Assembly: GCA_964423235.1 (NCBI GenBank)
Contig: CAYREJ010000001.1
Location: 1-35,266 of the forward strand
Length of the DNA: 35,266 bases
Direction of reading: 5' to 3'
Origin: an uncultured Acidobacteriota bacterium
Lineage (GTDB): Bacteria > Acidobacteriota > HRBIN11 > MFGW01
The number at the start of each line of letters is the position of its first letter. Position 1 is the first letter of the stretch. Under the pieces are notes generated by a model, which saw only the letters and a program-made list of their open reading frames with translations, had not been told where the DNA came from and searched no databases. Positions 10,625-30,271 of the stretch are shown piece by piece. A program made the translations under genes and the position numbers.

Positions 10625-12190
10625 TTATATATCATTATTTATTTTATCTTCTGGAAAAATGATTAATTCTTTAACTTCTTCTGATGTTAATATCCTTTTT
10701 TTCTTTAATTTCATATTCTCTAAATCTTCAATTACATAATAACTAAACTCAAAAAAGGAAACTATAAATTTCTTCTTGGAAGGTTCAAGATTCCTATCAA
10801 GAGTCTCTTTATATGCATCATAACAAATCTTAGATAGAAAATCTTTTCCGTTTTTATAATAGAAATAGCTGTTTACCAAAAGCTTGAATGCTAAAAATCT
10901 AAGTCTTTTCTCCGTCCAATATTCATTGAGAAATGCCCTAATTAATTCTCGCTTTTTTTCTTTTAATTGTTCTTTTGTAAATTTTATTGCAGCAAATTTA
11001 TCATTTAAATATAATAACCTATTTCGTAAAGATCTTATAAGATTTGGTTTCATACACCATGCTAAAAATAACTTATCATTAAAAAGATTATTATAATAGT
11101 ATTGATATAAAATTAAATTATCTTCTCCGTAAATATTTCTCAATGGATTTCTTCCGCGTTTATCGTATTTTACTAATAACGCGGGTAGGTATTTTTCTAA
11201 TTCTTCTGGTAATGCTATATTCTTTTTCTTATGACTTTTAATTACTAAGTTAATAAAATGCAAAACGAAAGATGGATCAATCTCAAAAATATTTATATGA
11301 TTCCCTGAAAACCTTCTTTCTATCTTCTTTATTAATATTTCTTGCTTCTCCTGCTTCACAGTATTTACAAAAGCTTCTTTTATTCTTAAATTATGTAATA
11401 AAATTAAAAAATATATATACTGTTCAGTATTCGGCAAATAATTCATAATGATTATAAATGTAAAATCATATGAAAGGCAGGGGGTCATCCACGCTTTGTA
11501 TATCTTAGCTATCTCAGCTTCATCTAAAAAATTTTGCCTCTTGTTTTTAACTTGATTTTCTATTACATATTTTATTTTCTTTAATTCTTTAATTTTTTCT
11601 TTAGGAATATCCTTCTTTAAAATATTTTCTATGATTTCAATAGTGTCAATAATAGAATGCTCTTTTAATAGCCTTAATAAAATTTCATCAAATCTATTTT
11701 CTTTTCCATAGTAAGAAAATAGCCATTCTGCTTGTTTTATATTACCATCTATATAATCTCGCACATATTTTTCTATTAAATCAATATGATTTTTGATAAT
11801 ATTGTTGAAGAAATCTTCAGAAAATTTTTCCTCTTCAAAACTCCTCAATATAGCCCAATGTTTTTTCCGGCTTTCTTCTATAGCAGCAAAGATTTCGCTC
11901 TTCATAAAATACTCATTTTGATTTATTTTGTTTATTATTATCTCTTTATATGGAAAATAAATGTTAGGGCATAATATGATTTCTCTGAAAAAAGAATTGC
12001 GAAGATTTTCATCAGCGCAGCTAAATGCATCAATAAGCTTCATAAAACTTTCTTTATCTAATTCTTTTGCCAAAGAAACTGACTTCGCTATTGCTTGCTC
12101 TTCTCCAACTTCTAAAATTAATGAAAGAAGTTTTTCCTTGTCTAATTCTTTCTCCTTAAGTAATTTTTTTATATTTTTCTCTTTTTTCAT
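10625..12190 (-). CDS. Hypothetical protein, 521 aa, Lys/Glu/Ile-rich, predicted all-helical, no recognisable motif
   Basis: Long uninterrupted ORF with ATG start, 3 nt upstream of recD2 and 17 nt downstream of the DUF2007 gene. I found no catalytic or nucleotide-binding motif by eye. Confidence 0.7.
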   Translation of the reverse strand: MKKEKNIKKLLKEKELDKEKLLSLILEVGEEQAIAKSVSLAKELDKESFMKLIDAFSCADENLRNSFFREIILCPNIYFPYKEIIINKINQNEYFMKSEIFAAIEESRKKHWAILRSFEEEKFSEDFFNNIIKNHIDLIEKYVRDYIDGNIKQAEWLFSYYGKENRFDEILLRLLKEHSIIDTIEIIENILKKDIPKEKIKELKKIKYVIENQVKNKRQNFLDEAEIAKIYKAWMTPCLSYDFTFIIIMNYLPNTEQYIYFLILLHNLRIKEAFVNTVKQEKQEILIKKIERRFSGNHINIFEIDPSFVLHFINLVIKSHKKKNIALPEELEKYLPALLVKYDKRGRNPLRNIYGEDNLILYQYYYNNLFNDKLFLAWCMKPNLIRSLRNRLLYLNDKFAAIKFTKEQLKEKKRELIRAFLNEYWTEKRLRFLAFKLLVNSYFYYKNGKDFLSKICYDAYKETLDRNLEPSKKKFIVSFFEFSYYVIEDLENMKLKKKRILTSEEVKELIIFPEDKINNDI

Positions 12191-12207
12191 TGATTCTGCT
12201 CCATATC

Positions 12208-12447
12208 TTATTTAATTATCCTTACGCCTTTTTTTAAATCTTTCAAGAGGTTCTTTGCGTCTTGTGCATATTTAGCGGGGACAGCAATTTGTATTTTCCC
12301 AAGCCCATTTATAGTAAAAGGCAAAATATCAGGGACTTCTCTAATAAGTCGGCAGGGAATCTCATAGCCATTTAAAAGATTCTTGATCAAAGAGGCTTCC
12401 CAGGGAGCCCAAGCTATGTATATAATTTCTTCAGCACCATTTTCCAT
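12208..12447 (-). CDS. DUF2007-like small protein (putative signal-transducing, PII-like fold)
   Basis: 79 aa. The pattern IYIAWAPWEASLIKNLLNGYEIPCRL...IQIAVPAKYAQDAKNLL resembles DUF2007. Confidence 0.6.
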   Translation of the reverse strand: MENGAEEIIYIAWAPWEASLIKNLLNGYEIPCRLIREVPDILPFTINGLGKIQIAVPAKYAQDAKNLLKDLKKGVRIIK

Positions 12448-12834: not shown

Positions 12835-13341
12835 ATGAAAAGGATATTTATAGGATTGCTTATAATAACAATAAGTTATTCATCTCTAACTTTTGCTTTG
12901 GAGAAGGCACCAAGAATAAGCGACAGGGAGATTTTGGAGAGGTTAATCCGACTGGAGGAAGGACAAAAGAATCTCGAAAAGCGAATTGATGATATAAACA
13001 AACGAATAGATGCTCTGGAAGCATCTCTCAATAAGAGAATAGATGATACCAATAAGAGAATAGATGATACCAATAAGAGAATAGATGCTCTGGAAGCATC
13101 TCTCAATAAGAGAATAGATGATGTTCGTTCAGAAATAAACAGCAGATTTGACACTATGCAATGGATGCTCGGCTTATTTATTACTATAGCACTTGTAATC
13201 CTTGGATTTGTTTTAAGAATGCAGTGGCAAATGCACAAAAGACAAACTAAAATAGAAGCAGTCCTTGAGACCCAAAGGGACGAACTTGCCTTTATAAGGC
13301 GGCTTGTAGAAAAGCTCCTACCTCCTAAAGCTGCTCTATAG
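12835..13341 (+). CDS. Coiled-coil membrane protein with NKRIDD heptad repeats (signal peptide plus C-terminal TM helix)
   Basis: 168 aa. N-terminal hydrophobic MKRIFIGLLIITISYSSLTFA, repeated KRIDD(T/I)N / KRIDALEASLN modules, TM segment WMLGLFITIALVILGFVL. Confidence 0.75.
   Translation: MKRIFIGLLIITISYSSLTFALEKAPRISDREILERLIRLEEGQKNLEKRIDDINKRIDALEASLNKRIDDTNKRIDDTNKRIDALEASLNKRIDDVRSEINSRFDTMQWMLGLFITIALVILGFVLRMQWQMHKRQTKIEAVLETQRDELAFIRRLVEKLLPPKAAL
13004..13122 (+). repeat. In-frame tandem repeats inside the coiled-coil gene
   Basis: An identical 44-mer gaatagatgctctggaagcatctctcaataagagaatagatgat occurs at 13004-13047 and 13079-13122. The copies are separated by 21-nt units accaataagagaatagatgat. 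Confidence 0.85.
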
Positions 13342-13401
13342 AACCTCGCATTAATTAAGATGCTATATGAAATCCTCACTAAATTTTCATAAAGAAAATA
13401 A

Positions 13402-13513: not shown

Positions 13514-14254
13514 ATGAAGTTAGCTGATATTGGTGTTTATATTATAACATTCAATGAAGAAAAAAGTATTGAGAAGAGTTTAGAGAGCGTGAAGTGGGCT
13601 GAAGAAATAATAATAGTAGATTCAAAAAGCAGCGATAATACTCGGGAGATTGCTAAAAAATACACTGATAATATATATATAAAAGAATTTTATGGTTATG
13701 GTGAACAAAAGAATTATGCTTTGTCTTTAATAAGCAAGCCATGGGCTTTAAATATAGATGCTGATGAAGTTATTTCAGAGAAATTAATAAAAGAAATAGA
13801 AGATTTAGAAGATGTTTTGGTGAATGGTTTTTATATCCCAAGAAGAAATTATTATTTAGGAAAGCCGATAAGATTTTGTGGATGGTATCCGGATTATAAA
13901 TTAAGATTACATAGGAGAGGTAAAAGTAAATGGAGCAATTCCTTAGTTCATGAATCTTTGATGATTGAAGGGGAAGCCGGCTATCTATATAATGAAATTT
14001 TGCATTTTACTTATAATGATATTTATTCTCATATAGAGCGATTGTATAATTATGCAAAGCTTAGCTCATCAATGCTTAAAAAGAAAAAAAAGAAAATCTA
14101 TCCTTTCCAATTAATTTTAATTCCTTTTTTGGTTTTTTTAAAGAAATTCATAATTCAACTGGGATTTCTTGAAGGATATAGAGGAGTATTAATCAGCATG
14201 ATGGAAAGTTATTATTCATTTTTGAAGTATGCGATGGCAAGTTATGATGCTTGA
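13514..14254 (+). CDS. Family 2 glycosyltransferase (LPS-core WaaE/KdtX-like)
   Basis: 246 aa. IITFNEEKSIEKSL, IIIVDSKSSDNT, NIDADE (DxD region), C-terminal hydrophobic tail. Confidence 0.85.
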   Translation: MKLADIGVYIITFNEEKSIEKSLESVKWAEEIIIVDSKSSDNTREIAKKYTDNIYIKEFYGYGEQKNYALSLISKPWALNIDADEVISEKLIKEIEDLEDVLVNGFYIPRRNYYLGKPIRFCGWYPDYKLRLHRRGKSKWSNSLVHESLMIEGEAGYLYNEILHFTYNDIYSHIERLYNYAKLSSSMLKKKKKKIYPFQLILIPFLVFLKKFIIQLGFLEGYRGVLISMMESYYSFLKYAMASYDA

Positions 14255-14265
14255 TTTATTAAGCT

Positions 14266-14456
14266 ATTAGCGAGTTAACAAATTGGCGAATTAGCCACGC
14301 TTTTTTCATTTAGCTTATCGCATTTTTCTGTTAACTATTACCTATCATTCTTTTTGTGTTCTTTGTGCCTTCTTTGTGCACTTTGTGGTTAATTTCATCG
14401 CAATTGATTTATTATAATATTAACGACTTAGATTTTAGAACTCACTAACTCGTAAT
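14266..14456. repeat. 191-bp MITE-like element with ATTA(G)CGAGTTA terminal inverted repeats and a CTTTGTG heptad core
   Basis: Left attagcgagtta 14266-14277. Right taactcgtaat 14446-14456 (rc attacgagtta). Core 14348-14395 is ttctttttgtgttctttgtgccttctttgtgcactttgtggttaattt. Confidence 0.6.
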
Positions 14457-14523
14457 AAAATAATAAATCTTTTCGATATAAAAATTACCGTGGGCTTCTG
14501 AACTATTAGCAGGAACATCCAGG

Positions 14524-15045
14524 TTATTTTACTGCAATGCTGCCTGCTGCTTTAAATTTTGAATAATCTCCTAATTTCTTTGAGTATATAATCTTTGAAT
14601 CACCAGGAGCATAAAAATCTTCTATTATTGCTATCTGCTTATATCCTAAACTTTCATAAAACTTTCTTGTCTTTTGATATGATAATTTAGATGAAGTCTC
14701 TATAAGAATGAATTCACCTTTTGATTTTGCAATCTCGTTTTCCGCATAAATCAGCAGCTTGCTTCCTATCCCTTTCCCTTGTGCAGATTTTCTTACAGCA
14801 ATCCAATAGATCTCGTAAGTAGAATAGCTTAAAGGAGCTTTTCCAAAAGCTATGAATGCGTCCGGCATAAAGTAATTATTTTTATCAGCAGCAACATAAA
14901 TTCTGTAAGTTGAAGCTTTATTATTAAAATAATCATCTACTACTTCCATAGCTATATTTACTTCTTCTTGTGTAAAAGAATTAGTGGAGAAAAGGATTTC
15001 TTTAATATAAATTTTATCAGAAGGATTTGCTGTTCTTATAATCAT
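14524..15045 (-). CDS. GNAT family N-acetyltransferase
   Basis: Acetyl-CoA motif A VRKSAQGKGIGSKLL. Start chosen at the ATG at 15045 (GGTGA SD, 4 nt after the upstream stop). The track start at 15108 is a TTG overlapping the upstream gene. Confidence 0.85.
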   Translation of the reverse strand: MIIRTANPSDKIYIKEILFSTNSFTQEEVNIAMEVVDDYFNNKASTYRIYVAADKNNYFMPDAFIAFGKAPLSYSTYEIYWIAVRKSAQGKGIGSKLLIYAENEIAKSKGEFILIETSSKLSYQKTRKFYESLGYKQIAIIEDFYAPGDSKIIYSKKLGDYSKFKAAGSIAVK

Positions 15046-15049
15046 AAAA

Positions 15050-16084
15050 TCACCATCCATTATTGAGCATACGAAGATATGCTCTTTTTTTATTATGAGC
15101 TTTATCAATTAAAAATTTTATAAAATCATTATAATTTTTCCCAGAGGCTTTCCAGGACCTGGCAAAGCCAGCATGGGGAGATATATCAGGATTACAATTT
15201 ACTTCTATGATATAAGGGTTGTTTCTTTCATCAAGTCTTATATCCACTCTCGCATAATCTTGACATTTGCAAATCTTAAAAGCTTTTATAGCAATTTCTT
15301 TTATGTAGTCTTCAATTTTAATGTCTAGAACAGCAGGACAAATCGCAGGCGTTTGTTTCTCTTCCCAACTATCTTTAATCCATTTAGCTTTATATGATAC
15401 TATCTTAGGAGTATCTGCAGGAAAGTTTTCAAAGATTATTTCAGAAAGAGGTAAAACATTAATTTCTTCATCTTCAACAATTGCTACATTTATTTCTCTT
15501 CCATTAATATATTCTTCTATAATGGCTGGTTGATTGAATTTATCAATCACCCTTTTAATTTCTTTCAACAATTCTTTTGGATTATAAACAACTGATGTGC
15601 TTTCAACACCTACGCTTGCATCTTCATATTGCGGCTTAACTATTAATGGAAAAATTAAATCTTCAGGCAGATTAGCTCCATCACTATTTGTGAAATATCT
15701 TGGAACCGGAAGCCCATTCAACGATAAAACATTTTTTGTATAAGCTTTATCAGTAGTTAATAAAATTGCATAAGAATTTGAACCTGTATAAGGAATATTC
15801 AATAATTCCAAAACAGCTGGTATCTTGTATTGCTCCATATTCTTCCCATTAAAACTTTCACATAAATTTATTATGCAATGCCATTCCTTTTCTATAAGCA
15901 TTTTCATAATTTCAGATGTATTGGAAGAAAGAATCGGTAGTTCAATATAATCATAATTAAGAATTTTTAAACTCTCTTCCACAGCTTTAACTTCATCCAT
16001 AACTCCCATCGTTGCTTCGTAGTCAATGCTATTTTCTTTTACTTCTGGCTTATTATAAAGTATTCCTATTAGTACTTTTTTCAT
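15050..16084 (-). CDS. ATP-grasp ligase, D-Ala-D-Ala-ligase-like family (not a canonical Ddl)
   Basis: 344 aa. PLIVKPQYEDASVGV, EEYINGREINV, ARVDIRLDERNNPYIIEVNCNPDIS. Lacks the N-terminal GGxSxEHEVS motif of true Ddl. Confidence 0.85.
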   Translation of the reverse strand: MKKVLIGILYNKPEVKENSIDYEATMGVMDEVKAVEESLKILNYDYIELPILSSNTSEIMKMLIEKEWHCIINLCESFNGKNMEQYKIPAVLELLNIPYTGSNSYAILLTTDKAYTKNVLSLNGLPVPRYFTNSDGANLPEDLIFPLIVKPQYEDASVGVESTSVVYNPKELLKEIKRVIDKFNQPAIIEEYINGREINVAIVEDEEINVLPLSEIIFENFPADTPKIVSYKAKWIKDSWEEKQTPAICPAVLDIKIEDYIKEIAIKAFKICKCQDYARVDIRLDERNNPYIIEVNCNPDISPHAGFARSWKASGKNYNDFIKFLIDKAHNKKRAYLRMLNNGW

Positions 16085-16191
16085 AAATAACTTCTCGACT
16101 AAAGGTTCATAAATCTAGTGCATTTAGCATTTTAGGATTTCCTAATAAGAATTTCGCTCTATTTTTCATAGCAGTTACTTCTGCTGGATAT

Positions 16192-17190
16192 TTATAAAGG
16201 CTGGAGATTATATCTCCGACATGCTAATTCAATTATTTCTCTGATTAAACTTTCATAGCTGCGGCCAACCATAGAACCTATTATTGGTAAATCACTATGT
16301 GTAGGATGTAATCCTGGTAATGGATTTATTTCAAGAAAATATGGATTATCTTCTTCATCACACCTTATATCTACTCTGGCTGTATCTCTGCATTCTATCG
16401 CTTTGTAAACCCTTAAAGATAAATCAGCAATTCTTTTCCATAAATTATCATTTTTATCTGAAAAATGCCGATAAATAACTTTTCTTTCACATTCTTCTTT
16501 TGCTACATAAGTATAAATATTCCTTTGACTACTATCATTGATTATAACCTCCATTATTCCTAAAACATATGGATCTTCATTTCCTAATATAGCTACAGTA
16601 AATTCTCTACCTGCTAAATATTTTTCAACTAAAACCGGCTGCCTGTATAATTTCATAATCAGCTTAATTTGCTCAACCAGCTTGCTAAAATTGTCTACTA
16701 CTGAATTCTCAGTTATCCCTTTCGCAGTTCCTTCATAGAGAGGTTTTACAAATAAAGGGAAACTATCAGCTGGTATATTTTCTAATTCTTCTAATTTAGT
16801 AATTTTCCAGTAAGGAAGGAAAGAGATTCCATTAATCTCAGCTATTTTTTTGCATAAGTATTTATCCAAGGAAATAGCCATTGTTAAGGCATCTGAAAAA
16901 GTATATGGAATATTTAATAATTCACAAATAGATGGCACTTGAGATTCTCTCCATCTACCTTGTACACCTTCCGCTATATTAAAGATTAAATCCACATCTT
17001 CTAACAGCTGGTAATTATGAATTAGATTTAAGGGATTCCCGATATCTACTACATCATAACCTAAGCTTCTAATAGTATTAGTTAAATGGAGGATTGTACT
17101 TTCAGAATCCCACTCAGCGTCTGCATCAATAGGGTCTTCCGGTTGTCTGGGAAAGTATTTTCTTAAATTATATACCAATCCTATTTTCAT
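16192..17190 (-). CDS. ATP-grasp ligase, D-Ala-D-Ala-ligase-like family (paralogue of the downstream gene)
   Basis: 332 aa. PLFVKPLYEGTAKGI, EKYLAGREFTV, ARVDIRCDEEDNPYFLEINPLPGL. The same N-terminal LVYN...D.E.DS layout as its neighbour. Confidence 0.85.
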   Translation of the reverse strand: MKIGLVYNLRKYFPRQPEDPIDADAEWDSESTILHLTNTIRSLGYDVVDIGNPLNLIHNYQLLEDVDLIFNIAEGVQGRWRESQVPSICELLNIPYTFSDALTMAISLDKYLCKKIAEINGISFLPYWKITKLEELENIPADSFPLFVKPLYEGTAKGITENSVVDNFSKLVEQIKLIMKLYRQPVLVEKYLAGREFTVAILGNEDPYVLGIMEVIINDSSQRNIYTYVAKEECERKVIYRHFSDKNDNLWKRIADLSLRVYKAIECRDTARVDIRCDEEDNPYFLEINPLPGLHPTHSDLPIIGSMVGRSYESLIREIIELACRRYNLQPL

Positions 17191-17212
17191 GTTATTTTAA
17201 TTATAAAAGTAG

Positions 17213-18493
17213 CTATCTGACTTTTCTTAAATGAGTGCGAGTAAAATTCCTTCGCTGATATTTTTTGATCCCGATCGGCATTAAAGTAGGTAAGCTTCCA
17301 TTAGCAACTCCTGCGACTCCTTCTCTTAAAACAGGTTCAGTAGCAGCAAGGGGATTATCTTCAAATCTTGCAATAACTCCTTGATAATTTCTCAAAACAA
17401 CAGAATCCTCTGTCATTGATATCAAATAATTCGGCTGAATAGGAACTTTTCCTAATCCACCAGGAACATCTATGACATAAGTCGGAACTCCTAAACCTGA
17501 AATATGCCCTCTTAATCCTTCCATTATTTCTATTCCTTTCCTTATAGAGGTGCAAAAATGCAAAGTTCCTCTCACAGCATCGCAATGAAATAAATAATAA
17601 GGTCTAACTTTTATCTTAAGTAATCCTTGATTTAACTTTCTCTGAATCTCTACGCTATCATTAATTCCTTTTAGCAGAACTGCTTGATTATTAATGGGAC
17701 ATCCTGCTTTTAACAATTTGTCGCAAGCTTCAGCAGCTTCCGGAGTTATCTCATTTGGATGATTAAAATGAGTATTTATCCAAATTGGATTATACTTCTG
17801 AAGCATATCGGTCAGCTCAGTAGTTATTCGCTGGGGTAAAGTAACTGGAACCCTTGTTCCAATCCTTAAAATTTCTACATGAGGAATTGCTCTTAATTTC
17901 TGCAGAATATATTCCAGAGAAGGAGTTCCCAATGTAAGAGGGTCCCCACCTGAAATTATTACATCTTTTATTCTGGGATTTTTAGATATGTAATCAGCAG
18001 CTCTATCTATCAAAAAGCGAGGATAAACATTTTCCTTGCCCTCCCATTCTCTTTTTCTGGTGCAATGACGACAATACATAGGACAAATATTTGTAACGAC
18101 TAAAAGAACTCTATCAGGATATCTGTGAGTAAGTCCCGGAACGGGCATATCTCTTTCTTCACTAAGTGGGTCTTCAAGAGCATCTTGCATATAAGCTATT
18201 TCTTCAATTTGAGGTAACGCTTGCAATAATATAGGATCATTAGGATTATTGAAATCAATTAGAGAAAAATAGTAGGGAGTGATAGCCATATGGTATCTTG
18301 GAAGAATTAACTTGAGTTTTTCTTCATAATCAGGGGAGAGGTAAATGAACTTCTTTAAATCTTCAATACTTCTGATGCGATTACGCATCTGCCATTTCCA
18401 ATCTTTCCATTCCTGAATACTTACTCCTTGCCATAATTCAGGAATGGAACTTATAGGCAAAGGGTCTTCAAGTTGGGGTGAGGGATTTTCCAT
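17213..18493 (-). CDS. kamA: L-lysine 2,3-aminomutase (KamA family radical SAM/PLP enzyme)
   Basis: 426 aa. WKDWKWQMRNRI, MAITPYYFSLID, radical-SAM CPMYCRHCTRK, SGGDPL, NTHFNHPNEIT, VIDVPGGLGK. GGAGG SD. Confidence 0.92.
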   Translation of the reverse strand: MENPSPQLEDPLPISSIPELWQGVSIQEWKDWKWQMRNRIRSIEDLKKFIYLSPDYEEKLKLILPRYHMAITPYYFSLIDFNNPNDPILLQALPQIEEIAYMQDALEDPLSEERDMPVPGLTHRYPDRVLLVVTNICPMYCRHCTRKREWEGKENVYPRFLIDRAADYISKNPRIKDVIISGGDPLTLGTPSLEYILQKLRAIPHVEILRIGTRVPVTLPQRITTELTDMLQKYNPIWINTHFNHPNEITPEAAEACDKLLKAGCPINNQAVLLKGINDSVEIQRKLNQGLLKIKVRPYYLFHCDAVRGTLHFCTSIRKGIEIMEGLRGHISGLGVPTYVIDVPGGLGKVPIQPNYLISMTEDSVVLRNYQGVIARFEDNPLAATEPVLREGVAGVANGSLPTLMPIGIKKYQRRNFTRTHLRKVR

Positions 18494-18556
18494 TTTTTCT
18501 CCTCCAAACTATAAATAATTTTAAATAATATATCTTCATTATTTTATCAAAATGAA

Positions 18557-18584
18557 ATTATATTCCTTTAAAAAATATTGTCAA
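18557..18584 (-). promoter_or_regulatory. Consensus sigma70 promoter TTGACA-N16-TATAAT for the kamA operon
   Basis: rc of 18579-18584 is TTGACA and rc of 18557-18562 is TATAAT. A ~60-nt leader ends in GGAGG-N8-ATG. Confidence 0.6.
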
Positions 18585-18648
18585 GCAATTTTCATAAAAT
18601 TAAGAAAAAATATTTTATCATAAAATTGGGCTCTAAACCTTAATATTA

Positions 18649-18723
18649 CTTTGTTATCTTTGTGATATCTTTGTGTCCTCTATGGAAAAATAAATAATAA
18701 ACCACAAAGAAAACAAAGAAAAG
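18649..18723. repeat. Palindromic copy of the heptad repeat family in the kamA/rtcB divergent region
   Basis: ctttgttatctttgtgatatctttgtgtcctctatgg (18649-18685), a 15-nt A-rich loop, then accacaaagaaaacaaagaaaag (18701-18723). Confidence 0.6.
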
Positions 18724-18822
18724 CAGATAAAACTTTGTTTACCTTGCATTTGGTTAATTATGAACAGTTGCTTAAATTTGCAATTATTCAGTATTTTCCA
18801 AATCCTATCACCTATATTAAAT

Positions 18823-18851
18823 TTGCAAATTGCTTAACATAAGATTAAAAT
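18823..18851 (+). promoter_or_regulatory. Candidate sigma70 promoter TTGCAA-N17-TAAAAT for rtcB, with its -35 inside a 12-nt palindrome
   Basis: TTGCAA 18823-18828, TAAAAT 18846-18851. Palindrome aatttgcaaatt 18820-18831. The word taaatttgcaa also occurs at 18773-18783. Confidence 0.45.
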
Positions 18852-18888
18852 AAATGATAACAATTCTTTGAAAGAAGGAAAAAATAAT

Positions 18889-20331
18889 ATGGCAAGAGAA
18901 TTAAAAAAAATTAGCGATTGCATATGGGAAATAGAACCGGAAGCAAGGATGAATGTTCCGGTAAGAATATATGCAAATGAAAGAATTTTAGAAGATATAA
19001 AGCATGACGAGAGTATAGCACAAGCATGCAATGTAGCAACACTTCCGGGTATTCAAAAATATTCTTTAGCAATGCCTGATATACACTCTGGATATGGTTT
19101 TCCCATCGGAGGAGTTGCGGCATTTGATTATCAAGAAGGAATAATATCACCTGGTGGTGTCGGATACGATATTAATTGCGGTGTCAGAGTAGCTAAGACA
19201 TTATTAGAATTAAAGGATGTTAAAGATAAATTAAGGGAGATTGTAGATAGCATATTTAGGAATGTGCCAAGCGGATTAGGTTCTTCAGGAGCTATACCTA
19301 AGCTAAAAGAAAAAGATTTAAAAGAAGTAATGATAAAAGGTGCAAGGTGGTCAATAGAGCATGGATTTGGAGAGGAAAGCGATTTAGAATATTGTGAAGA
19401 GAGGGGTTGCATAGAAGGAGCTGATCCGGAAATAATCTCTTCAAGGGCAATTGAACGGGGTCAAGACCAAGTAGGAACAGTTGGTTCCGGCAATCATTTC
19501 GTTGAAATAGACTATGTTGATGAAATATACGATGAGAAAATAGCTAATGCTTTAGGTTTAAAAAAGAATTTAATAATAGTTCAACTTCATTCTGGTTCAA
19601 GAGGTTTTGGTTATCAGGTTTGCGATGATTTTATAAGAATAATGAGAAATGCTTCTTCAAAATACAATATTTATTTGGCTGATAGACAATTAGGATGTGC
19701 CCCAATTCAATCTAAAGAAGGGAAAGATTATTTTGCAGCTATGGCTTGCGCGGCTAATTATGCCTGGGCAAATCGTCAAACAATAATGTATTTAACAGGA
19801 GAAGCTATAAGAAAGGCACTTAATATGAGCAAAAAAGAATTAGGATTGCAATTAATTTACGATGTAGCACATAACATAGCAAAGATAGAAGAGCATATTA
19901 TTGATGGGAAAAAGAAGAAAGTCTGCGTTCATAGGAAAGGAGCGACACGCGCTTTCGCTGCAAACAATAAAGAATTACCATCTAAGTACATGAAGATTGG
20001 GCAGCCGGTGCTAATCCCCGGAGATATGGGAACTAATTCATATATTTTAATTGGAAACGAAACAGCAATGCAAGAAACTTTTGGAAGCACTTGTCATGGC
20101 GCTGGAAGATTAATGTCCAGAGCTGCTGCAAAAAAATCATCGCAAGGCAGAGATATAGTAAAGGAATTAGAGAAATCCGGTATAATAGTTCGTTCAGATA
20201 GCAAAGCTACTTTAATGGAAGAAATTCCTGAGGCTTATAAAGATGTGTCCATAGTGGTTGATGTTGTTCATAAAGCAGGATTAGCAAAGAAAGTAGCTCG
20301 TTTGCGCCCTATTGGTGTAGCAAAAGGATAA
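18889..20331 (+). CDS. rtcB: RNA-splicing ligase RtcB (3'-phosphate/5'-hydroxyl RNA ligase)
   Basis: Motifs GYDINCGVR, GSGNHFVE, HSGSRGFG, HRKGATRA, GSTCHGAGR. ATG at 18889 follows AAGGAA. The track start at 18868 is a TTG. Confidence 0.93.
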   Translation: MARELKKISDCIWEIEPEARMNVPVRIYANERILEDIKHDESIAQACNVATLPGIQKYSLAMPDIHSGYGFPIGGVAAFDYQEGIISPGGVGYDINCGVRVAKTLLELKDVKDKLREIVDSIFRNVPSGLGSSGAIPKLKEKDLKEVMIKGARWSIEHGFGEESDLEYCEERGCIEGADPEIISSRAIERGQDQVGTVGSGNHFVEIDYVDEIYDEKIANALGLKKNLIIVQLHSGSRGFGYQVCDDFIRIMRNASSKYNIYLADRQLGCAPIQSKEGKDYFAAMACAANYAWANRQTIMYLTGEAIRKALNMSKKELGLQLIYDVAHNIAKIEEHIIDGKKKKVCVHRKGATRAFAANNKELPSKYMKIGQPVLIPGDMGTNSYILIGNETAMQETFGSTCHGAGRLMSRAAAKKSSQGRDIVKELEKSGIIVRSDSKATLMEEIPEAYKDVSIVVDVVHKAGLAKKVARLRPIGVAKG

Positions 20332-23551: not shown

Positions 23552-25006
23552 TTATTTATTTAGGATTATATTTTTAAGATCAGATATAGTAGATAAATTT
23601 TTCATTTTAAGAGTTTGAAATACACTCATATTAACTGCATGGATATAAGATCCTTTATTACTTCGAGAACCACCAGATATTTTTCTTGATACTACGATAG
23701 GACGTAATGTTCTTTCAGCAAGATTATTTGTTAAAGGAACATTTTCATAAAGCAATGCAGTTAATAAATTAACATTTTGCTTATCTATTCTTTTCTGAAT
23801 CCTTTTAGCATCTTTATATTTATAGCTATAATTTATAATATCATTAATTGCCTGAATAAATTGATTATAGTAATCAATTCTTTCCTCTTTATCAAAAGGT
23901 TTTTTGATAATCTCTGATAATTTTGAATACATATCTTTAAGCATTGCGTATAGCTTTATCACTTCATCTGAGGCAGATTCCCTTTCTGCTTCTTCTCTGC
24001 ATGCTCTTAGTAAATGAGCCCAGCAACTTTGATGCTTCATTTTAATATTTCTATAAGCATAATAGTCATCCCTGACAATTACAAAATCCTCTGGCGAACC
24101 CCTATAAAAATTATGAGGTATGGCTTTTCCTCTACTGTTTGTAATCATATAGTAAACTGCTTTAGGAATAGAAAAAGACCATACCCAACAATTATTGCCA
24201 TTTATCCTCCAGCTTGTTTCATCTGCACAACTATAAACCGATGATTTTATCTCTTCCTTTATCTTTTCATAATAAGAACCTAACCATTTGCTTGCTTTAT
24301 GTAATAAATTAACTACGCCAGCTTTACTTACTTTTAATCCAAAAAGTATTTTTATAGATTCAACAATCGAATCTAAAGATGATCTCATGCCATATCTTAA
24401 ATTCATTACATAAAGTAATGTATTTATGCCAAGCCTGCTTTTAGGTATTACTTCAGAAGGGATACCCACAACCTCCTTTTTGCATTTACTACACCACTGC
24501 CTCATTATCTTATATAATATAACTTTATATCGCAAATATTCAAATGAAGGAATGTCCTCCACTATATGCTCATAATATGAATTATTAAGACTAAGCAAAT
24601 TATCGCAAAATGGACAACGTCTAATAAATACTTCCTTGTACTCATCTATTTTTTCAGGCTTCTTACGCCCACTCCCTTTATGACCCTTCTTTGCCCCTAC
24701 CTTCTTGCTCTCAATAACTTCTTTAGGTACTTCCCCTTCCTTTGTCTCAGCCTTCTTACTCTTTTTGCTTCTTTTGAATATGATGCTATTGTACCTATCT
24801 ATCGTTGATCTAAGTTTTTCTATAGTCTCCTTTAATTCACTATTTTCCTTTTTTAATCTCCTTATTTCTTTATTTTGTTCCTTTACCCTCTTAATAAGGC
24901 TTTCTATCTTATTATTCTTTTTATTTAAACTATTCTTTAATGATTTAATATGAATTACTAACTTCCTTTTTTCTTCATCACTACTACGCCATTTTAAATT
25001 AATCAT
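23552..25006 (-). CDS. IS66 family DDE transposase (TnpC-type)
   Basis: 484 aa. N-terminal leucine-zipper coiled coil, zinc-finger CPFCDN...CSKCKK, ADETSWRINGNNCWVW, HQSCWAHLLR, TNNLAERTLRPIVVSRKISGGSRS. Confidence 0.88.
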   Translation of the reverse strand: MINLKWRSSDEEKRKLVIHIKSLKNSLNKKNNKIESLIKRVKEQNKEIRRLKKENSELKETIEKLRSTIDRYNSIIFKRSKKSKKAETKEGEVPKEVIESKKVGAKKGHKGSGRKKPEKIDEYKEVFIRRCPFCDNLLSLNNSYYEHIVEDIPSFEYLRYKVILYKIMRQWCSKCKKEVVGIPSEVIPKSRLGINTLLYVMNLRYGMRSSLDSIVESIKILFGLKVSKAGVVNLLHKASKWLGSYYEKIKEEIKSSVYSCADETSWRINGNNCWVWSFSIPKAVYYMITNSRGKAIPHNFYRGSPEDFVIVRDDYYAYRNIKMKHQSCWAHLLRACREEAERESASDEVIKLYAMLKDMYSKLSEIIKKPFDKEERIDYYNQFIQAINDIINYSYKYKDAKRIQKRIDKQNVNLLTALLYENVPLTNNLAERTLRPIVVSRKISGGSRSNKGSYIHAVNMSVFQTLKMKNLSTISDLKNIILNK

Positions 25007-25934
25007 TTAATAATCTCTCCCTTGCTTTCTTTATTAAAGGATATACATAAACATCCTTCTGTATCCCATGATAAAAATAATTCATCCCGCTCCTTCCTTT
25101 CCCCTTTGTCCTTCCTAAATATATCCAATTAGCTGCTTTATAACTTGTCCCAGAAAATCTATCTACTTCTACAAAAGTTTCTATTAGCATAGGCTCATAT
25201 CCATAATATGCACCCCAATCTTGTCTTATCCTTCTTGATATAGATGCCAATATCTTAGATGATAAATACTTTACCTTTACCCAAGGTAATATCAAATATC
25301 TACTATTATTTATTATTAAATGTAAATTCTTCTTCCTTCTTTCTGCATCCCATCCTATCCATTTATCCCTTATATTTAAATGCAATACAGCATCTGAAAA
25401 TCCTATGCATGCTACTAATTTATCATCCAAATAAATTAAATACTTTATGTAATGCCCTACTAATACCTTATATCCTTTGTAATGATAATTATAAATTAAA
25501 TAATCCCATAACCCTTCTTTATCTTTTCCTCTTGCTATCTCAAATCTTATTTCCTTGAATTGCCCTGCCTTGCCTGTAATCTCTTCCTTAACAATATCAA
25601 ATTTAATCTGATCCCTTAATGCTCCTCCTTTATTCTTCTGCCTCCTTTTTAATCTTATAGGAGGACAATATATTAATCCAGCTTTATGCATCCTTAATAA
25701 TACATCCCTACAGGCTCTGTCTTTTAATACACCATTTGCTTGCCTCCAATTTAAAAGCTTACATATCAGCTTGGATTGAAAAGTCCTACTGCTATCCCCA
25801 TAATCTTTTAAAACATTCTTTATAATCTCTATATCTTCTTGACTGAATTCCTTTCCTCTAAATATGTATTTTTTATTGCATTCATTGTTTTTATCATTCA
25901 TATATATAGTATAATGATTTTGCTTAGCGTGCAC
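24999..25934 (-). CDS. DUF4338-like (DruA-like) protein encoded as the first gene of the IS
   Basis: Segment HYKGYKVLVGHYIKYLIYLDDKLVACIGFSDAVLHLNIRDKWIGWDAERRKKNLHLIINNSRYLILPWV...LIETFVEVDRFSGTSYKAANWIYLGRTKGKGRSG matches my recollection of the DUF4338 consensus. GTG at 25934 or ATG at 25901. Its stop overlaps the tnp ATG (ATGATTAA). Confidence 0.7.
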   Translation of the reverse strand: MHAKQNHYTIYMNDKNNECNKKYIFRGKEFSQEDIEIIKNVLKDYGDSSRTFQSKLICKLLNWRQANGVLKDRACRDVLLRMHKAGLIYCPPIRLKRRQKNKGGALRDQIKFDIVKEEITGKAGQFKEIRFEIARGKDKEGLWDYLIYNYHYKGYKVLVGHYIKYLIYLDDKLVACIGFSDAVLHLNIRDKWIGWDAERRKKNLHLIINNSRYLILPWVKVKYLSSKILASISRRIRQDWGAYYGYEPMLIETFVEVDRFSGTSYKAANWIYLGRTKGKGRSGMNYFYHGIQKDVYVYPLIKKARERLLND

Positions 25935-30234: not shown

Positions 30235-30271
30235 CTTTTCTTTGTGCGATTTGTGCCTGCTTTGTGGTTTC
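30235..30271. repeat. Half copy of the heptad repeat family
   Basis: cttttctttgtgcgatttgtgcctgctttgtggtttc, in the convergent gap between the methyltransferase and the ABC-2 permease. Confidence 0.6.

Follow-up and report, generated by a model that had tools for sequence, protein, structure and literature searches.

A candidate beta-lysine ligation pathway encoded by lysine 2,3-aminomutase, two D-Ala-D-Ala ligase-fold ATP-grasp and GNAT genes in an uncultured Acidobacteriota bacterium

beta-Lysine has four recognized fates: N-acetyl-beta-lysine, modification of elongation factor P (EF-P), fermentation, and the antibiotics of nonribosomal peptide synthetases. We analyzed an operon in a 35,266-nucleotide (nt) stretch of DNA from an uncultured Acidobacteriota bacterium (GenBank assembly GCA_964423235.1, contig CAYREJ010000001.1, positions 1 to 35,266 of the forward strand), hereafter the window. 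The operon encodes a lysine 2,3-aminomutase homolog (KamA), two ATP-grasp proteins with the fold of D-alanine–D-alanine ligase (Ddl), here called AG1 and AG2, and a GNAT N-acetyltransferase, and a first-pass annotation made from the sequence had proposed it as an undescribed beta-lysine ligation pathway. The AblA/AblB (KamA/YodP) pathway resembles it in its AblA-like aminomutase with all lysine-binding residues, its GNAT in the operon and its mainly anaerobic hosts. In contrast to AblA/AblB, the operon places two Ddl-fold ligases between KamA and a GNAT outside the AblB family, and its KamA falls just under the AblA model cutoff, without the C-terminal part of that model. Work on Pelobacter and on syntrophic propionate oxidizers covers AblA/AblB only (PMC3543383; PMC11201294), and a paper on sigma-54 goes no further than naming the COG. 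In lichen-associated Nostoc, an operon of a lysine 2,3-aminomutase (LAM), a SET protein and a "D-Ala-D-Ala ligase 3" was described in silico by Gagunashvili & Andresson 2018 (PMC5987646), who proposed transfer of methylated beta-lysine to an unspecified acceptor and deemed the operon specific to lichen Nostoc, sporadic and horizontally acquired. It shares the core of the window operon, KamA and an AG1-type ligase (22 nt apart in the window), but has SET and neither AG2 nor GNAT, whereas the core found here is widespread and comes with a second ligase and a GNAT; both are known in silico. "Undescribed" is thus accurate for the four-gene set and not for the KamA-SET-ligase variant noted in 2018: we found no description of a cluster of KamA, two ATP-grasp proteins and a GNAT in the full-text literature, where the ATP-grasp survey of Iyer et al. 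2009 could hold an earlier in silico mention.

Other systems share parts of this design. In the EpmB/EpmA system a KamA-family aminomutase also feeds a dedicated ligase, but there the ligase is a lysyl-tRNA-synthetase paralog acting on a protein target, while the KamA described here is not EpmB-type and has no linked efp or epmA. N-Acetylglutaminylglutamine amide (NAGGN) is reportedly made by a GNAT and an ATP-grasp enzyme (Sagot et al. 2010). The likeness of this Ngg/AsnO system lies in its domain pairing and product: a GNAT is joined to an ATP-grasp domain, as in the AG2-GNAT fusions described below, and the product is a ribosome-free, N-acetylated dipeptide solute. In Ngg, however, the GNAT is N-terminal, the ATP-grasp domain is not Ddl-like, and neither an aminomutase nor a beta-amino acid takes part, whereas the operon has two separate ligases. 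The L-amino-acid ligases of small peptide natural products (BacD/YwfE, RizA/B, TabS, BL00235) are likewise stand-alone ATP-grasp enzymes that act in sequence and form di- to oligopeptides. BL00235 (PDB 3VOT) gave a weak profile match (1.2e-09). These ligases belong to a different ATP-grasp subfamily and to secondary-metabolite clusters of narrow range, and none of them is known to use beta-lysine. The cluster is akin both to ATP-grasp/GNAT small-peptide pathways and to beta-lysine solute pathways.

Synteny and gene fusions across Bacteria and Archaea

A one-genome-per-species scan returned at least 594 loci with AG1 relatives; locus statistics are those of the best 80, of which, for counts of neighbors, 56 well-flanked loci had at least 3.5 kb on either side of AG1. 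A word-indexed search gave more than 7,000 AG1 relatives, and an exhaustive search (E ≤ 1e-30) gave 705 clusters at 50% identity. The closest named homologs, from Candidatus Fischerbacteria, are 55-60% identical. KamA was found near AG1 in 48/56 well-flanked loci, AG2 in 43/56, a GNAT domain in 37/56, and all four genes in 33/56. The order KamA>AG1>AG2>GNAT, which is that of the window, was the commonest (26 loci), and 12 further loci had this order with a deacetylase gene before the GNAT. The same four genes occur as AG1-AG2-GNAT-KamA in Ignavibacteriae and as GNAT-KamA-AG1 with a divergent AG2 in Bathyarchaeia, and they are also found together in Thermodesulfobacteriota and Anaerohalosphaeraceae.

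The cluster ranges over at least 15 phyla of Bacteria and Archaea. Among the best 80 loci are representatives of Planctomycetota, Desulfobacterota/Thermodesulfobacteriota, Nitrospirota, Cloacimonadota, Omnitrophota, Acidobacteriota, Dehalococcoidia (Chloroflexota), Lentisphaerae, Eisenbacteria, Gemmatimonadota, Myxococcota, Alphaproteobacteria, Cyanobacteria, and Bacteroidota, the last including a cultured host, Prolixibacter denitrificans DSM 27267 (locus L072). The AG1 profile matched cyanobacterial loci of Nostoc, Cylindrospermum and Dolichospermum at 41-42% identity; in two Nostoc loci (L049, L074) the AG1 relatives, 41-42% identical, lie beside KamA and SET genes. KamA+AG1 clusters without any GNAT were found in cyanobacteria and Omnitrophota. 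The arrangement is beyond chance and recurs across phyla, Archaea included, also in shuffled order. Because the co-location survives rearrangement in two domains of life, it is strong evidence for one shared function. The first-pass view of the four genes as one unit fits the 33/56 loci that have them all, but the invariant core is KamA plus AG1, with AG2 and GNAT as a frequent second module.

Gene fusions follow the same succession. AG2 and GNAT form a single open reading frame (ORF) in 11 of 32 adjacent pairs; approximately 39 two-ATP-grasp proteins occur among the best 150 representatives from the exhaustive AG1 search, one of which, P0284, clearly has an AG1-type N-terminus and an AG2-type C-terminus; and P0349, of 746 amino acids (aa), consists of a full-length KamA (45% identical to the window KamA) and an AG1-type ligase. 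The fusions therefore chain KamA-AG1, AG1-AG2, and AG2-GNAT, matching the gene order of the window. A CxxCxxCC domain is also found fused to AG1, and in Pirellulales this domain lies between KamA and AG1.

An alphaproteobacterial locus (L081:5431-13224) encodes KamA, four Ddl-like ATP-grasp proteins and then a GNAT-Peptidase_M23 fusion, so that the peptide made by some lineages may be longer. In Desulfobacterota (L017, L018, L071, L011), histidine kinase and sigma-54 response regulator genes are situated between AG1 and KamA-AG2, with a second kinase/regulator pair and tatC upstream, a hint that the pathway is under sigma-54 control in this lineage.

The aminomutase, the ligases and the acetyltransferase

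KamA was aligned to the solved lysine 2,3-aminomutase of Clostridium subterminale (PDB 2A5H; E 2.7e-144), and the equivalents of C125/C129/C132, R134, D293, D330, and K337 are all identical, the last four corresponding to R146, D305, D342, and K349. We take K337 of 2A5H to be the pyridoxal phosphate lysine and R134, D293, and D330 to be the residues that recognize lysine; glutamate 2,3-aminomutase reportedly has Lys/Asn at the two Asp positions (Ruzicka & Frey 2007). Conservation was assessed in 65 KamA genes adjoining AG1 homologs: the radical-SAM CxxxCxxC motif (CPMYCRHC, residues 137-144) is kept in 65/65, and the R134, D293, D330, and K337 positions in 64-65/65, one sequence being gapped. 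The lysine-binding Asp context on which the first-pass annotation relied is thus in place, with both D293 and D330 equivalents retained. Its statement that KamA is collinear with the Clostridium enzyme applies only to about residue 380, and the four zinc-site cysteines are gone. These cysteines of the structural zinc site, which we take to be C268, C375, C377, and C380 of the Clostridium enzyme, are lost from KamA (residues about 268 and 380-395) in the 2A5H alignment through a Ser at the C268 position and deletion of the CxCxxC segment.

The best NCBIfam model for KamA was AblA (TIGR03820; 514.9 bits, cutoff 525.4), matched over model positions 3-360 of 417; the KamA-family model TIGR00238 was passed (358 against 199.2). 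Other cluster-linked KamAs are matched by the AblA model over the same stretch, 3-360, and no further. The missing zinc site and C-terminal part of the model probably explain the narrow miss of the cutoff, and the shared extent of the AblA match suggests that cluster-linked KamAs form a distinct KamA subgroup. Assignment as EpmB was rejected (TIGR03821, 247.1 against a cutoff of 369.3), as were glutamate aminomutase (478 against 650) and arginine aminomutase (418 against 600), both Asp residues being kept. Modification of EF-P by the operon was also rejected: KamA is not EpmB-type, and efp and epmA are neither in the window nor recurrent in related loci. Profile classification places KamA with the AblA/KamA type, and we predict it to be an active-site-complete lysine 2,3-aminomutase. 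Since its active site is conserved, beta-lysine is the expected product.

For AG1 and AG2, Dala_Dala_lig_C was the sole Pfam domain, and PF01820 (Dala_Dala_lig_N) matched neither protein. Their N-termini (AG1, MKIGLVYNLRKYF...; AG2, MKKVLIGILYNKPE...) lack the GGxSxEhEVS motif. The Ddl model NF002378 (cutoff 243) gave AG1 154.7 and AG2 149.9, and TIGR01205 (cutoff 245.65) gave them 138.5 and 143.8. As a control, the genuine Ddl encoded beside murB/murC in the related Anaerohalosphaeraceae genome L002 scored 311.7 (NF002378) and 254 (TIGR01205), and the true Ddl of L002/L003 carries PF01820. The two ligases share 30% identity, and the nearest solved sequences to both are all Ddl/Van ligases. 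An AlphaFold (AF2) model of AG1 (pLDDT 94.6) had Ddl structures as its top Foldseek matches, superposed over the whole length with TM 0.75-0.81 at 20-26% identity.

Residues were mapped in a MAFFT alignment of 81 AG1 and 46 AG2 sequences with Escherichia coli DdlB; the mapping is a lead and not proof. The ATP, Mg, and transition-state residues, which we take to be K97, K144, E180, E187, K215, R255, D257, E270, and N272 of DdlB, are invariant or nearly so. The D-Ala site of DdlB (2DLN) presumably comprises E15/H63/S150/Y216 and S281/L282. Relative to DdlB, AG1 has E74 for H63, R81 for E68, E232 for Y216, and D300 for L282, and AG2 has W235 for Y216, A305/G306 for S281/L282, and Ala for S150. 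These changes would make the AG1 pocket more acidic (E74, E232, D300), in keeping with a preference for cationic substrates, beta-lysine among them, and the second site of AG2 roomier. Both proteins are predicted to be functional ATP-grasp enzymes that have the Ddl fold but are not Ddl. A Ddl-type core without the N-terminal GGxSxEHEVS motif, as described in the first-pass annotation, is therefore what the domain, cutoff and catalytic-residue comparisons returned, and a true Ddl passes the same test.

AG1 and AG2 resemble Ddl/Van ligases throughout the three-domain fold and in the residues of ATP/Mg catalysis, but differ from them in their low identity, the absence of PF01820, the altered substrate site, and the absence of mur context, while a true Ddl is separately encoded in a related genome. 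On these grounds, with the missed cutoffs, a housekeeping Ddl identity was rejected; linkage of AG1 or AG2 to mur or ftsQ was found neither in the window nor recurrently in the 80 loci. Public records label AG1-type ligases "D-alanine--D-alanine ligase", and this label is almost certainly wrong.

No curated NCBIfam model was passed by the GNAT (best RimI, 44.6 against a cutoff of 86.4), and TIGR03827, which we take to be the AblB model, gave no match at E ≤ 0.01. Its one strong PDB relative is 2R7H (E 9e-25), a structural-genomics entry titled "putative D-alanine N-acetyltransferase". This structure is 42-53% identical to GNATs inside KamA-AG1-AG2-GNAT clusters of many genomes, including L020, L043, L067, and L072. 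By sequence similarity, the window GNAT is not AblB and 2R7H is a member of the GNAT family of the cluster; the title of 2R7H probably derives from misannotated neighboring "Ddl" genes. We predict that the window GNAT transfers an acetyl group to a free amine on the product made from beta-lysine.

Accessory genes and the locus in the window

A deacetylase gene is present in 19/80 loci. The protein, of 580-760 aa, combines an HDAC-fold domain with an N-domain that resembles a degenerate GNAT. Of 14 adjacent deacetylase-GNAT pairs, 12 are single proteins in which the deacetylase is fused, C-terminally, to the pathway GNAT. The HDAC domain matched acetylpolyamine amidohydrolases at 1e-62 to 5e-75 (PDB 9gkz, 4.8e-75; 6phr; 3men; 3q9b), single-domain bacterial and eukaryotic protein deacetylases at approximately 1e-33, and two-domain HDAC6 chains at a sum of 1e-60. 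Nostoc and Cylindrospermum have a SET-domain (methyltransferase) gene between KamA and AG1, two alphaproteobacterial loci have one following the GNAT, and ABC_membrane+ABC_tran exporters follow the cluster in 6/80 loci. Occasional neighbors encode M24, C26, and M23 peptidases, an amidohydrolase, an FAD oxidase, TetR, and two-component/sigma-54 regulators. Clustering of all ORFs from 83 loci gave a recurrent accessory set of deacetylase, SET, TetR, two-component/sigma-54 regulators, CxxCxxCC domain, and ABC exporters, and no recurrent neighbor past the four genes and this set. In a Thermodesulfobacteriota locus (L001:10843-13160), Amidohydro_3 and Peptidase_C26 (gamma-glutamyl-hydrolase-like) genes follow the four-gene cluster and are possible product turnover enzymes.

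Primary aminoalkyl (lysine-type) amines are the common target of the GNAT, the acetylpolyamine deacetylase, and SET. Read most simply, the product keeps a free epsilon-amine that is acetylated, deacetylated or methylated; AG1 and AG2 would therefore use the carboxylate and/or the beta-amine of beta-lysine. Lineages in which the deacetylase and GNAT are fused may run an acetyl cycle or use a protecting group, and acetyl protection could prevent lactamization of an activated beta-lysyl phosphate. The N-acetylated product put forward in the first-pass annotation fits the window, which has no deacetylase, but many lineages add a deacetylase, SET or an ABC exporter, and where a deacetylase is present acetylation may be transient.

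The four co-directional minus-strand genes and the perfect promoter described earlier were found in the window as listed in Table 1, and the motifs CPMYCRHC, VIDVPGGLGK, EINPLPGL, and EVNCNPDIS are all in the translations. The promoter lies approximately 64 nt upstream of the KamA ATG, and a Shine-Dalgarno sequence, GGAGG, is at 18505-18501, 8 nt ahead of the same codon. The total of promoter-like sites in the 14-19 kb region equals the shuffle expectation, and only the 12/12 site at 18584..18557 is notable. Of the intergenic gaps given originally, 22 nt (KamA-AG1) and 107 nt (AG1-AG2) were read directly, and 4 nt (AG2-GNAT) is correct provided the GNAT starts at ATG 15045. On an identical Logan contig, a separate gene call starts the GNAT at ATG 15060, for a protein of 178 aa and an 11-nt overlap with the AG2 stop. 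No minus-strand terminator-like hairpin was seen between the four genes.

Table 1. Operon genes and promoter in the window
Feature	Position	Strand	Remarks
KamA, lysine 2,3-aminomutase (AblA/KamA type, predicted)	17213..18493	(-)	426 aa; Radical_SAM + LAM_C (Pfam)
AG1, Ddl-fold ATP-grasp ligase (predicted)	16192..17190	(-)	332 aa; Dala_Dala_lig_C (Pfam)
AG2, second Ddl-fold ATP-grasp ligase (predicted)	15050..16084	(-)	344 aa; Dala_Dala_lig_C (Pfam)
GNAT N-acetyltransferase (predicted)	14524..15045	(-)	173 aa; Acetyltransf_7/1/10 (Pfam); alternative start ATG 15060
Sigma-70-type promoter TTGACA-N16-TATAAT	18557..18584	(-)	Sole 12/12 consensus match in 14000-19000

The other genes of the window include ruvABC, yebC, an amidohydrolase, an FTCD-like gene, divIVA, a sulfatase-TPR protein, recD2, rtcB, remA, yicC, an MsbA-like ABC exporter, methyltransferases, a polysaccharide flippase, an ABC-2 transporter, an IS66 transposase and a DruA-domain ORF. 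As the first-pass annotation had noted for the neighborhood of the operon, mur, ddl, efp, epmA, and kamDE are absent, and this applies to the whole window. The nearest ABC exporter is 3 kb from the operon, beyond three unrelated genes, and a GT2 glycosyltransferase gene adjoins the operon on the opposite strand. Tandem copies of CACAAAG with 11-nt spacing occur at 159-176, 14350-14378, 18658-18675, and 30249-30266, all on the (-) strand and intergenic, and flank the operon on both sides (5 matches with ≤2 mismatches against 0.15 expected). The sequences flanking these sites beyond 2-3 repeats do not align; the repeats could be a dispersed regulatory or REP-like element.

Elsewhere, at 23552-25934 (-), the gene for the IS66-family transposase (484 aa) is downstream of the DruA-domain ORF with an 8-nt overlap. 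The latter, of 311 aa, matches the Druantia DruA domain (1.5e-43) and adjoins the MsbA-like exporter; the pair may be a mobile element with a defense-related domain. A 521-aa Lys/Glu-rich ORF and a 79-aa ORF, both with zero Pfam matches, lie upstream of recD2 (10625-12447, (-)). At 12835-13379, a 168-aa protein has a signal/transmembrane segment and repeated NKRIDD(T/A) coiled-coil units, and the 167-aa ORF opposite it is almost certainly a shadow ORF.

A proposed pathway and its alternatives

The candidate beta-lysine ligation pathway of the first-pass annotation gains support from profile classification and synteny, reinforced by the fusions. From the observed gene content, active-site integrity, synteny and fusions we infer its chemical steps and physiological role, and we consider it probable that the operon is a ribosome-independent assembly line that builds a small acetylated, peptide-like metabolite from beta-lysine. 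KamA would convert L-lysine to beta-lysine. AG1 would then take beta-lysine directly and join it via an acyl-phosphate to a common cellular metabolite or to a second beta-lysine; no other dedicated building-block enzyme is conserved. AG2 would add one more unit, and the GNAT would acetylate a leftover primary amine, most likely the lysine-type epsilon-amine. Since the window has no deacetylase, its end product would stay acetylated, and is probably a small N-acetylated beta-lysine di- or tripeptide-like metabolite, zwitterionic or mildly cationic. In lineages with a GNAT-deacetylase fusion, the acetyl group would probably be transient, protecting or detoxifying, as in an ArgJ-type acetyl cycle or polyamine acetylation. 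We hold any specific product with much lower confidence than this general scheme.

Several explanations other than ligation of beta-lysine into such a metabolite were weighed. An osmolyte pathway of the AblA/AblB type, with KamA and the GNAT producing N-epsilon-acetyl-beta-lysine and the two ATP-grasp genes present as unrelated passengers or as regulators, would agree with AblA as the best model for KamA, with the GNAT in the same operon, and with N-acetyl-beta-lysine as a known fate of beta-lysine in anaerobic bacteria and archaea (PMC3543383; PMC11201294). We regard it as very unlikely, however: the GNAT belongs to the 2R7H family and is not AblB, AG1 is the most constant partner of KamA (AG1 loci have KamA in 48/56 and GNAT in only 37/56), the ligases are fused to KamA, to each other and to the GNAT, and the cyanobacterial and Omnitrophota KamA+AG1 clusters dispense with the GNAT altogether. 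Attachment of beta-lysine to a protein, in the manner of EF-P modification or of RimK/TTL, with the GNAT, deacetylase and SET acting there, appears highly improbable. GNAT, HDAC-type and SET domains are classic modifiers of protein lysines, the KamA paralog EpmB supplies EF-P beta-lysylation, and RimK and TTL are protein-modifying ATP-grasp enzymes; but KamA is remote from EpmB, reaching 247 bits where the cutoff is 369, no efp, epmA or other candidate target gene recurs in the 80 loci, the nearest relatives of the ligases are small-molecule Ddl enzymes, and the acetylpolyamine amidohydrolase match of the deacetylase is approximately 40 orders of magnitude better than that to single-domain protein deacetylases.

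The small-molecule type of the deacetylase also argues against a cell-envelope pathway, in which the ligases would decorate peptidoglycan or a different surface polymer with a side chain or cross-bridge that contains beta-lysine. A role of this kind was put forward for the Nostoc "D-Ala-D-Ala ligase 3" (PMC5987646). The Ddl fold of the ligases, the GNAT-M23 peptidase fusion after four ATP-grasp genes in one alphaproteobacterial locus, the GT2 glycosyltransferase gene beside the operon in the window, and a lytic transglycosylase and murF near the Nostoc operon (PMC5987646) point toward the envelope. However, the single GT2 gene is the only cell-wall-type gene of the window, no mur, fem or glycosyltransferase gene recurs in the 80 loci, and the gene set is present in Bathyarchaeia. 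Bathyarchaeia are not expected to make murein, and we judge an envelope role quite unlikely. It is unlikely, too, that the product is a secreted specialized metabolite, such as a small beta-lysine peptide antibiotic, a siderophore-like compound or a signal. ABC exporters follow the cluster in 6/80 loci, a MATE pump was reported in Nostoc (PMC5987646), beta-lysine dipeptide antibiotics are known (TAN-1057 and negamycin, cited in PMC5987646), and an acetylation/deacetylation pair could serve pro-drug self-protection. Most loci, including that of the window, nevertheless have no exporter, resistance or regulatory genes are not conserved, and so broad and vertical-looking a spread of a minimal gene set, over at least 594 species, is atypical for antibiotics.

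Some observations weigh against the proposed beta-lysine ligation pathway itself. The AG1 and AG2 families have no characterized member, and partner substrates, regiochemistry, and the acetylated position are predicted. KamA, 10 bits under the AblA cutoff and without the C-terminal zinc site, could differ in kinetics or stereochemistry, and the KamA-AG1 fusion is one representative metagenomic protein, P0349, known from its protein sequence. AG1 has no nearby KamA in 8/56 well-flanked loci. In Myxococcota (Kofleriaceae, Haliangiales; L066:5858-8404 and L069:1984-4317), fused double AG1-family ATP-grasp proteins stand alone, with no KamA within the 11-15 kb retrieved. At such loci, either beta-lysine is supplied from an unlinked gene or the AG1 relatives use other substrates. 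As to physiology, when the window and 19 related loci were compared with Rfam, tRNAs were the sole matches, with no riboswitch or known regulatory RNA that might give a hint, and no salt-response data for the cluster were found.

The most likely physiological role for the product of the proposed ligation pathway is that of a cytoplasmic organic solute, i.e., a compatible solute or polyamine-like cation, and it may be exported in the minority of lineages with ABC or MATE exporters. A more specific suggestion, which we offer tentatively and would not ourselves bet on, is that a new class of metabolites, beta-lysine oligo-amides (e.g., beta-lysyl-beta-lysine or beta-lysyl-X), serve as such a cation or solute in many anaerobic bacteria and some archaea, with acetylation/deacetylation or methylation of the epsilon-amine tuning the charge.

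The system is tractable: its four genes are small, and at least one host (Prolixibacter denitrificans DSM 27267) is in culture. Mislabeled "Ddl" records of AG1-type ligases could mislead predictions of cell-wall synthesis and vancomycin resistance. Identification of the product would define new specificities of the Ddl fold and explain the orphan structure 2R7H, and the product might be a new osmolyte or polyamine surrogate in anaerobic sediments and digesters. If the proposed pathway is correct, the cluster would add a fifth fate of beta-lysine, a new and widespread branch of lysine metabolism, and a new substrate class for Ddl-fold ligases.

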